From NCBI RefSeq assembly GCF_003334255.1, contig NZ_QOWU01000180.1: a stretch of 978 nucleotides of DNA, one strand, 5' to 3'. Source of the stretch: Escherichia coli (GTDB lineage Bacteria > Pseudomonadota > Gammaproteobacteria > Enterobacterales > Enterobacteriaceae). This document shows positions 231 through 799 of this stretch, in pieces; within the stretch, counting starts at the first letter, position 1; every line of letters begins with the position of its first letter. A model generated the notes under the pieces. It was given only the letters and a program-made list of their open reading frames with translations, did not search any database and was not told where the DNA came from. The translations under genes and the position numbers were made by a program.

Positions 231-460
231 TGTGTGCACTCCTTCTGTTCGGCGTTGTTCGTGAGCGTTGCAATCAGTCGTTCAATGGATGAGCAGGTTT
301 CCTCCGGGGAGGTGTGCTTCTCTCTCGCTGTGTCAACCAGGTCACGCAGCAATTCGCAGATATGCGCACGCTCGGCTTTTCTTGCGGCCATGCTGATATG
401 TGCATGATGGTTAGCTGGTCTGGCGGCTATTTCTCTGCCGGGTGATTCGGCTGTTCTCAT
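227..460 (-). CDS. Hypothetical small hydrophilic protein, 77 aa, function unknown
   Basis: ATG at 460-458 is preceded by AGGAG (plus 468-472, minus strand) with a 7-nt spacer; TGA stop at 229-227. Product: MRTAESPGREIAARPANHHAHISMAARKAERAHICELLRDLVDTAREKHTSPEETCSSIERLIATLTNNAEQKECTQ, charged and probably helical, with a His-rich N-terminus. The track's 85-aa version (227..484) needs a TTG start at 484 with no ribosome-binding site. I do not recognise the family. Confidence 0.7.
   Translation of the reverse strand: MRTAESPGREIAARPANHHAHISMAARKAERAHICELLRDLVDTAREKHTSPEETCSSIERLIATLTNNAEQKECTQ
238..242 (-). promoter_or_regulatory. Shine-Dalgarno-like GGAGT for the exonuclease-like gene, embedded in the 3' end of the upstream CDS
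   Basis: Minus-strand GAAGGAGT (plus 238-245) lies 7 nt upstream of the in-frame GTG at 230-228. Confidence 0.45.
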
Positions 461-467
461 TTGTTGA

Positions 468-472
468 CTCCT
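468..472 (-). promoter_or_regulatory. Shine-Dalgarno site (AGGAG) for the 77-aa gene
   Basis: Minus-strand AGGAG followed by 7 nt (TCAACAA) and then ATG at 460; an A/U-rich tract (UCUUUUUU) lies immediately upstream. Confidence 0.65.
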
Positions 473-496
473 GAAAAAAGACAAAGGGAACCCGAT

Positions 497-518
497 GGCA
501 TGAATGCCTTAATTAATT
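497..518. repeat. Inverted repeat GGCAT-GA-ATGCC (497-508) directly adjoining the palindrome TTAATTAA (509-516); candidate protein-binding site or RNA hairpin
   Basis: Read directly from the sequence: 5-bp arms GGCAT/ATGCC with a 2-bp spacer, next to the self-complementary TTAATTAA / AATTAATT (509-518), in the AT-rich spacer upstream of the 77-aa gene. Confidence 0.3.
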
Positions 519-565
519 GTTCGTATGTTTTCTGGTGTTATTGCGTTCTTATTTGAAGCTTAAGG

Positions 566-661
566 TTATTCCCAGATCTTCAGGGCTAACCAGATAAGCG
601 CACACACCTGAAATATCAGCCACACACTGGCAATGGTGAGTATTGCTTTTACATTCTTCAT
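566..661 (-). CDS. Putative small hydrophobic (single transmembrane) peptide, 31 aa
   Basis: Minus-strand ATG at 661-659, TAA at 568-566. Product: MKNVKAILTIASVWLIFQVCALIWLALKIWE, with Lys-flanked N-terminus and a roughly 20-residue hydrophobic core. It begins 12 nt after the stop of the 41-aa ORF and in the same frame. No strong Shine-Dalgarno site (upstream is AGCGAAAACGTT), so translation would depend on coupling or reinitiation. Below the ORF-track size cutoff. Confidence 0.35.
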   Translation of the reverse strand: MKNVKAILTIASVWLIFQVCALIWLALKIWE

Positions 662-673
662 AACGTTTTCGCT

Positions 674-799
674 TTATTTACGGCGTTTATCGCCGGTAAA
701 GAATAATTCGATATCCTTCAGTGTGTGGATAATTCGCATAATGCCGATTGCCATAAGTACGGAGATAATCAGAATTAGCCATGAAAGGAATATGATCAT
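674..799 (-). CDS. Putative small membrane protein, 41 aa (N-terminal transmembrane helix plus basic C-terminal tail)
   Basis: Minus-strand ATG at 799-797 overlaps the TGA stop (798-796) of the upstream gene as ATGA; AGGGG (plus 807-811) lies 7 nt upstream; TAA at 676-674. Product: MIIFLSWLILIISVLMAIGIMRIIHTLKDIELFFTGDKRRK. Below the ORF-track size cutoff; the plus-strand ORF 633..815 is antisense to it. Confidence 0.5.
   Translation of the reverse strand: MIIFLSWLILIISVLMAIGIMRIIHTLKDIELFFTGDKRRK

Follow-up and report, generated by a model that had tools for sequence, protein, structure and literature searches.

The window, by which we mean the whole 978-nucleotide stretch of Escherichia coli DNA that was analysed, carries plausible genes on the minus strand only, and the annotated neighbourhoods of its relatives identify it as early-operon DNA of a P2-like prophage, transcribed along the minus strand. 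Approximately 30 complete E. coli genomes match the window at 80-95% identity, and the match is chromosomal every time. The gene order runs integrase, repressor, Cox, DUF4761, DUF4754, a 41-aa gene, a gap and a 77-aa hypothetical gene, followed by a 3'-5' exonuclease, a ParE-like gene, Dam and a replication endonuclease. The operon position of the gap was established by comparing the gene order in the window's relatives with the annotated maps of phages 186 and P2. A preliminary description of this DNA had presented the gap as an AT-rich, non-coding spacer of roughly 105 bp containing an inverted repeat next to a palindrome, and this outline was confirmed. The spacer extends from 461 to 565, bounded by the start of the 77-aa gene (CAT, 458-460) and by the stop of a 31-aa ORF (TAA, 566-568), and it is the sole sizeable gap among the minus-strand ORFs of the window. 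Its G+C content is 0.28-0.43, compared to 0.5-0.65 in the flanks. The inverted repeat, GGCATGAATGCC, lies at 497-508 and the palindrome, TTAATTAA, adjoins it at 509-516.

The 77-aa protein belongs to phrog_22206, a family of unknown function that among the listed proteins is found in Enterobacteriaceae only, and it has no Pfam or NCBIfam assignment. Homologues with 33-48% identity are encoded in Klebsiella, Enterobacter and Yokenella prophages that display the same gene order. The 31-aa ORF at the upstream edge of the spacer lacks RefSeq annotation in relatives, where the annotated gap measures 214 bp; the ORF stays open in relatives, one of which has an in-frame 3-nt insertion. This ORF is itself an insertion just upstream of the 5' box AATAACACCAG, and in relatives without it the stop codon of the 41-aa gene adjoins the conserved block. 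The features of the spacer are as follows.

461-545, minus strand: conserved non-coding cassette, consisting of AATAACACCAG ... TTAATTAA, hairpin, GGGTTCCCTTTGTC, T6, AGGAG and N7
532-542, minus strand: 5' box AATAACACCAG at the upstream edge of the block, invariant in alignment A2
509-516, minus strand: TTAATTAA, probably TAA-T-TAA, overlapping out-of-frame stops just upstream of the hairpin
495-510, minus strand: proximal hairpin AAGGCA-UUCA-UGCCAU, whose core GGCA/UGCC is the inverted repeat of the preliminary description
480-494, minus strand: tail box CGGGUUCCCUUUGUC, in the register given by covariance model R2
474-483, minus strand: UGUCUU (483-478) and the U-run (479-474), an alternative 3' partner of AAGGCA
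458-472, minus strand: Shine-Dalgarno AGGAG (472-468), 7-nt spacer and ATG (460-458) of the 77-aa gene, invariant in A2

Within the window, the repeat and TTAATTAA are at chance level, and they gain significance only through relatives. When 461-565 was shuffled 5000 times, 53% of the shuffled sequences contained an inverted repeat (5-bp arms, loop of 0-8 nt) and 37% an 8-bp palindrome. The preliminary description had also suggested folding the minus-strand RNA; for the spacer as a whole, both strands were near their shuffled counterparts (z-scores of 0.14 and 0.89) and no global fold was obtained. The short hairpin was the sole structure common to the three lineages folded. A long-range pairing of ACACCAGAAAA with the Shine-Dalgarno sequence appeared in the minimum-energy folds of the E. 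coli type only, was absent in the Klebsiella and third types and was rejected. Searches with the Rfam 15 covariance models gave no match to the window on either strand at E values up to 10.

Approximately 85 nt of the spacer (461-545) are nearly invariant in an alignment of E. coli and IMG/VR sequences, and the flanking genes diverge more. The cassette block is 88-94% identical to that of relatives, compared with 76-83% in nucleotides for the adjacent 77-aa coding sequence; in more distant loci the block retains 88-92% identity, and the coding sequence shows 76-83% at the nucleotide and 56-71% at the protein level. For five E. coli genomes the homology to the window covers the 5' end of the 77-aa gene and continues through the spacer as far as about 541-542. 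Relatives have a U-run of 6 or 7 nt. The inverted repeat is kept at homologous loci and is longer in nearly all relatives than in the window: they carry AAGGCAT-GA-ATGCCTT at the equivalent of 495-510, and among 10 distinct E. coli-type sequence contexts the window alone has a mismatch in this longer repeat (T496, plus strand).

Prophages of Klebsiella, Enterobacter and Yokenella have the same spacer layout in the same place. The Klebsiella-type spacer reads CTAATTAACCAG, an A-rich stretch, the hairpin CGGCA-UUCAUUU-UGCCG, GGGAUUCGUUUUGCC, U5, AGGAGG and ATG. A third lineage, found in E. coli (loci L153 and L224-226), encodes a counterpart of the 77-aa protein with about 64% identity, and its spacer reads AAUAAC...CAGAAAAC, the hairpin (CC)A-UCCGC-AUCU-GCGGA-(GG) and then GGGCUUCAC. 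This lineage has the hairpin and GGGCUUC and no U-tract or U-rich tail; it was aligned by eye, and neither of the covariance models described below, R1 and R2, finds its sequence.

The spacer also has counterparts in P2 and 186. DNA searches of the phage collection with megablast and blastn gave no direct match to the window, and the link to these two phages came from their annotated records and from covariance models. The GenBank record of 186 (U32222) annotates a terminator, tR1, at 24384-24412 between dhr and orf79, with a note that it is one of several regional terminators "anti-terminated during early lytic ...". In the record of P2 (AF063097), the gap between B and orf80 carries a "putative rho-independent terminator" (26980-27007). 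A search of the open-access literature on 186 tR1, P2 early-operon terminators and antitermination yielded no usable paper. The 186 cassette reads GTTAATTAATTAA..CUUGGCG-UAAACC-CGCCGGG-CAUUCUUUUGCC..AGGAGG and the P2 cassette reads TAAGTAATTAACCAG..CGCAC-UUAAUU-GUGCG-GGGCUUCUUUUUGCC..GGAG. Both share TAATTAA, the hairpin and GGGNUUC..UUUUGCC. The P2 and Klebsiella-type cassettes start with TAATTAACCAG, the counterpart of the 5' box AATAACACCAG of the window, and the tail box of the window, CGGGUUCCCUUUGUC, has its counterparts in GGGCUUCUUUUUGCC of P2, GGGCAUUCUUUUGCC of 186 and GGGAUUCGUUUUGCC of the Klebsiella type. The consensus of the tail across the window, the Klebsiella type, P2 and 186 is GGGNUUC..UUUUGYC.

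Two covariance models were used to relate these elements. Model R1, for which Klebsiella-type sequences alone were used, detects the P2 terminator with an E value of about 1e-4 and aligns the two differing stems arm on arm; it did not recover 186 tR1 at the right place. Model R2 was built from Klebsiella-type and P2-type sequences, with no E. coli-type or 186 sequence in its training, and was searched with filters off against both strands of 57 kb that held no training sequence. Its best match was 186 tR1 (22.9 bits, E 0.018). In each of eight E. coli-type sources the single match was the spacer, in the same register. The match in the window, at 475-518 on the minus strand, is weak (17.2 bits), with an E value of 0.27 for the 57 kb or about 0.005 when scaled to the window. 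Since the E. coli-type scores are weak, it is the positional agreement across loci that carries the argument. Two extra matches of 17 bits lay within the repressor gene at loci of the P2 type, where no hairpin is present, and are probably due to chance.

Across the lineages, the stem changes sequence while pairing is retained. The core stems are AGGCA/UGCCU, CGGCA/UGCCG, CGCAC/GUGCG, UGGCG/CGCCG and UCCGC/GCGGA, the last being a fifth stem type, read directly from the third lineage, which is fully different yet complementary. In the alignment of 18 sequences, which was fitted to the model and represents only four or five independent lineages, 100% of cells pair and four of the five pairs have changed on both sides. 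The covariation score was 0.774, compared to 0.184 for shuffled alignments; none of 500 shuffles reached it, and slid partners scored at most 0.24. Substitutions in the hairpin cluster in the loop, and the spacing between the arms is 4, 6, 7 or 2-4 nt depending on the lineage.

The variants within lineages also indicate a strand. Among all fetched loci, six single-base stem variants leave a G.U pair in the sense transcript and a mismatch in the antisense one (P2 type: CGCGC, CGTAC, TGCAC; Klebsiella type: TGGCA, and TGTCG twice), and none shows the opposite pattern. Three further stem variants, namely CGGAA, TTCCG and the A.A of the window, break the pair on both strands. If both kinds of transition were equally likely, a result of six out of six sense-only variants would have a probability of about 0.016. 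Because the wobble variants pair on the sense RNA only, the hairpin is selected in the early-operon transcript. The conclusion that the hairpin is under selection as an RNA on the early-operon strand is well supported by these sequence comparisons.

The palindrome adjoins the hairpin on its upstream side. Of the three minus-strand frames, 2 and 0 end in TAA at 515-513 and 511-509, respectively, and frame 1 in TAA at 540, all of them ahead of the hairpin. TAATTAA(TTAA) likewise follows the stop codon of the upstream gene in the Klebsiella type, in P2 and in 186, the 186 version being TAA-T-TAA-T-TAA and the P2 version TAA-G-TAA-T-TAA. On this comparison, TTAATTAA is best read as overlapping out-of-frame TAA stops and not as a binding site. 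The stops would keep ribosomes off the hairpin, a requirement of intrinsic terminators.

As a terminator, the copy in the window is predicted to be weak. Its proximal stem has 4 bp and an A.A mismatch (A at 496, minus strand), the outer pair is broken, and the calculated energy is -4.8 kcal/mol, compared to -5.8 kcal/mol for the consensus UGCCUU. The first 8 nt after the proximal stem, CGGGUUCC, contain two U only. An alternative fold pairs AAGGCA with UGUCUU (483-478), with UUUU directly after it; this is the minimum-energy fold of the window (-7.3 kcal/mol, pair probability 0.89), and in the consensus sequence the proximal and distal folds share the ensemble. The distal fold lies beyond the covariation test because its positions are invariant. 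A terminator scan of 461-565 detected no site, and none was detected in an E. coli-type relative either; with the same scan, the sense strand is flagged at the sites of P2 and 186, and only the antisense strand at the Klebsiella-type hairpin. By these predictions, the copy in the window is a weak, non-canonical terminator. The third lineage is without a U-tract, and the conserved function may be other than termination as such.

Based on our results, we conclude that the spacer is probably the form that the intercistronic terminator cassette of P2-family early operons takes in this prophage, its counterparts being tR1 in 186 and the element after B in P2. The homology of the cassette to the P2 and 186 elements is well supported, and its most likely role would be to limit transcription into the replication genes, as a leaky terminator or an attenuator. 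In this model, the early transcript would start at the Cox-side promoter and run along the minus strand of the window, and the TAA stops in three frames would release any ribosome. The short GC-rich hairpin, AAGGCA/UGCC(U)U or, in the variant found in the window, AAGGCA/UGUCUU, could then form, and at the U-rich stretch downstream a fraction of the RNA polymerases would let go of the transcript. The remainder, whether by plain read-through or by being termination-resistant in the sense of the 186 record, would express the 77-aa gene via its own strong ribosome-binding site and proceed to the exonuclease, methylase and replication genes. In short, the small early genes and the replication block would be separated by a leaky gate. 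An attenuator separating two halves of the operon was among the roles proposed in the preliminary description. The proposal holds in that the spacer is the counterpart of the 186 and P2 terminators in both position and sequence and that its hairpin displays compensatory changes; termination by the window's own copy is the part that stays putative, with chances we judge to be roughly even.

The main rival is that the element is an mRNA processing or stability hairpin combined with a translation leader, and not a terminator. Cleavage of the polycistronic early RNA would then take place in the A/U-rich AAUUAAUUAA immediately 5' to this structure, the hairpin would cap the 5' end of the downstream replication mRNA or protect the 3' end of the upstream one, and the U-rich tract with AGGAG would provide independent, efficient ribosome loading on the 77-aa gene. 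Selection on the hairpin in the sense RNA is consistent with such a role, as are the third lineage with its hairpin and GGGCUUC but no U-tract, the failure of the E. coli and Klebsiella types to satisfy canonical sense-strand terminator criteria, and the invariance of the Shine-Dalgarno sequence and of its spacing to the ATG. However, the terminator scan flags the homologous P2 and 186 sites, which also carry terminator annotations, the region has no known processing site, and a stem of 4-6 bp would offer weak protection. We consider this explanation rather unlikely, while recognizing that the two roles are not mutually exclusive.

One feature is left unexplained by a generic terminator, and this is the presence of conserved boxes around a changing stem. 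The boxes (U)AAUUAACCAG upstream and GGGNUUCNUUUUGCC downstream are kept near letter-for-letter on either side of a stem that changes freely, amid unrelated neighbour genes. The cassette may thus be sequence-specific, serving as a cis site for antitermination of the 186 type, as a site for an RNA-binding factor or nuclease from host or phage, or as a linker for module exchange, a set of possibilities to which we assign a small probability.

A terminator acting on the plus strand, or in both directions, would shield the immunity region from transcription that arises within the replication genes. Immediately 5' of the hairpin, the sense strand of all lineages is rich in A, so that the antisense RNA has a U-rich tail after the stem, and the scan flags the Klebsiella-type antisense sequence CGGCAAAATGAATGCCG with TTATTTTTAA. 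The wobble variants argue against this idea, since all six pair on the sense RNA and break on the antisense RNA. In addition, no plus-strand promoter-like site lies upstream of the spacer at 1-460 of the window, and the antisense tail of the window, AAUUAAUUG, is too U-poor to pass the scan. Together these points make an antisense terminator improbable.

The preliminary description had further considered an operator at the inverted repeat and an internal promoter, and neither suggestion was upheld. A DNA operator at the repeat or at TTAATTAA, or a promoter for the replication genes, would be in keeping with a palindromic repeat in a conserved sequence that fills the only intergenic gap. Nevertheless, the spacing of the half-sites varies between lineages (4, 6, 7 or 2-4 bp) and the half-sites themselves are swapped for unrelated complementary sequences, such that both the spacing and the sequence of the arms change. 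The asymmetry of the G.U variants points to RNA, and the immunity and Cox genes differ among loci that share an identical spacer. The possibility had been raised that the same inverted repeat occurs elsewhere, as a regulator's binding motif would; the covariance-model search found no second copy in 17 kb of prophage. With respect to a promoter, the preliminary description reported no convincing sigma70 -35/-10 pair by eye on the minus strand, and our scan of the spacer agrees: no sigma-70-like hexamer pair was present on either strand of the window or of the relatives L026 and L227, and no hexamer pair is conserved. The hexamer TTGACT at 466-471 (plus strand) was rejected as a -35 element, having no -10 partner and being absent from the Klebsiella type. 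An activator-dependent promoter is formally possible. Overall, we regard an operator or internal promoter as very improbable.

Equally doubtful is the proposal that the block has no function of its own, its similarity reflecting a recombination junction that shuffles P2-like modules and its repeat being due to chance: the repeat is at chance level within the window alone, homology breakpoints and the 31-aa ORF insertion fall exactly at the 5' edge of the block, and the P2 and Klebsiella-type cassettes are flanked by genes without detectable similarity, but recombination alone does not explain the compensatory stem changes, the clustering of substitutions in the loop, the absence of antisense-type wobbles or the annotated terminator function in 186, and a linker role could be the by-product of a conserved functional cassette.

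Several other candidates were considered and set aside. An ORF of 14 codons begins with ATG at 502-500, and its TGA stop overlaps the start codon of the 77-aa gene. It was rejected as a leader or coupled ORF, as its frame is not conserved: it is broken by 1-nt changes in T-run length (L001, L017 and L019) and by a deletion (L004), and the ORF is absent from the Klebsiella type. A sigma-54 promoter was examined by eye and rejected, the GG-N-GC spacing being suitable on the Klebsiella-type antisense strand only and 3 nt shorter in the window. Inspection of the spacer by eye for IHF, DnaA, Ogr-type TGT-N12-ACA and Cox-box motifs gave no convincing or conserved match. A type I toxin-antitoxin antisense RNA directed against the small hydrophobic peptides was also rejected, with no plus-strand promoter feeding the spacer.

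Our results provide a function-based label, that of a probable gate between the early and the replication genes, for a spacer that lacks annotation and recurs in many P2-like prophages of E. coli, Klebsiella, Enterobacter and related bacteria. They indicate that the terminator cassette of P2 and 186, with its covarying stem, has been retained even next to flanking genes that were exchanged. Those who annotate, engineer or induce such prophages should expect polarity at this position, with the exonuclease, methylase and replication genes probably depending on read-through. Our understanding of phage regulation is unchanged by these findings, unless the flanking boxes prove to be a specific antitermination or processing signal.

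The proposed arrangement resembles that of lambda, where the terminators tR1 and tL1 and the nut sites form a system in which a terminator within the early operon gates the replication genes and is overridden in lytic growth. Lambda tR1 is Rho-dependent, and no N-like protein is known from P2-family phages. In the spacer of the window there is no boxA-like sequence, and the hairpin loop is variable, at 4-7 nt, and is therefore not a boxB. The likeness to lambda is in logic only.

Similar to the spacer of the window, 186 tR1 lies in the gap that follows the small early genes; some 20 nt further on begins a 77-codon ORF, the first of the block toward replication gene A. The layouts match as well, with TAATTAATTAA providing stops in three frames, followed by a GC-rich hairpin, GGGCAUUCUUUUGCC, AGGAGG and ATG. 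In contrast to the window, the 186 stem has 7 bp (CUUGGCG/CGCCGGG, -8.7 kcal/mol) with CAUUCUUUU directly after it, and it passes the canonical scan, whereas the stem in the window has 4-6 bp and the U-run lies at least 9 nt away. The 186 Orf79 protein has no detectable similarity to the 77-aa protein of the window, and the upstream genes fil and dhr also differ.

The P2 element occupies the same operon position and consists of TAA-G-TAA-T-TAA, CCAG, the hairpin CGCAC-UUAAUU-GUGCG, GGGCUUCUUUUUGCC and a Shine-Dalgarno sequence. It is nearly box-for-box identical to the Klebsiella-type cassette that precedes a homologue of the 77-aa gene. P2 differs in the sequence of the stem, where the changes are compensatory, and in a U-tract that lies closer to the stem and allows it to pass the scan. 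P2 Orf80 and 186 Orf79 are related to each other; P2 B and orf80 have no detectable relation to the genes that flank the spacer in the window, and the P2 annotation reads "putative" only. Taken together, the element is of a kind already known from P2 and 186, and the spacer of the window is a diverged copy of it.

In the Klebsiella-type loci the terminator cassette carries a direct repeat, GGCATTCATTTTGCC / GGGATTCGTTTTGCC (2396-2432 in L026, and likewise in other Klebsiella-type loci), and therefore either UGCC is a possible partner for the hairpin's 5' arm, the second of them being followed by U5. The window has the same duality of pairing, the two partners being UGCC and UGUC. A cassette with two possible 3' partners could represent a two-state element. 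Because of a plus-strand T at window position 496, the 16-nt inverted repeat lacks its outer pair; in all other E. coli-type sequence contexts the repeat is intact (AAGGCATGAATGCCTT). This change is found in the window alone, one of 10 distinct E. coli-type contexts, and in the fold prediction it shifts the balance in favour of the distal pairing, AAGGCA/UGUCUU.

In a third lineage of E. coli (L153 and L224-L226, about 1421-1500), GGGCUUC is retained and the complementary stem is of wholly different sequence, UCCGC/GCGGA. The cassette of this lineage lacks the U-rich tail, indicating either that the terminator has decayed there or that the conserved function is other than termination. In P2-type prophages, the covariance model built from Klebsiella-type and P2-type cassettes gave weak second matches of 17 bits (L235 5686-5739 and L301 10598-10651, both minus strand). 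Both are antisense to the repressor gene, within its 3' end, and have TTAACCAG..GTTTCGTTTTGCC in common; since no hairpin is present at either site, they are probably chance matches.

Downstream, the 3'-5' exonuclease gene of the relative L001 (7649-8230), located 3' of the 77-aa gene, was compared with Orf81 of phage 186 (L232 3391-3975), which is annotated as of 'unknown function'. The two products have an N-terminal IDTET motif in common (E 0.001). Because of this motif, Orf81 is probably a DnaQ-like exonuclease, and the window-type and 186 operons are syntenic beyond the terminator. The early operon also contains the following gene, with no obvious antitoxin partner among the adjacent annotations:

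L001 7412-7639 (-), and relatives: gene for a 75-aa 'ParE family toxin-like protein', flanked by those for the exonuclease and Dam

Three features lie on the other side of the spacer:

566-661 (-): 31-aa hydrophobic ORF (MKNVKAILTIASVWLIFQVCALIWLALKIWE)
674-799 (-): 41-aa hydrophobic peptide gene, with a 4-nt overlap with the end of DUF4754
748-775 (+): promoter-like site TTGCCA-16-CAGAAT (9/12 matches), antisense within the 41-aa gene

The 31-aa ORF is not annotated in the RefSeq relatives and its distribution is patchy, some relatives having it and others not. As an insertion flanked by AATAAC repeats (GGGAATAACC / GCGGAATAACACC), it separates the 41-aa gene from the conserved block. As the frame is open in every relative having the ORF, and the 3-nt insertion found in one of them is in-frame, the ORF probably represents a genuine gene for a small membrane protein. 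The 41-aa peptide had no match in PHROG or NCBIfam. The promoter-like site, kept in one relative (L227 1345-1318), points towards DUF4754 and Cox, away from the spacer, and is at chance level by count.

Two successive tiny membrane peptides, of 41 and 31 aa, directly precede the terminator cassette. In phage 186 their place is taken by fil and dhr, which encode small host-directed proteins.
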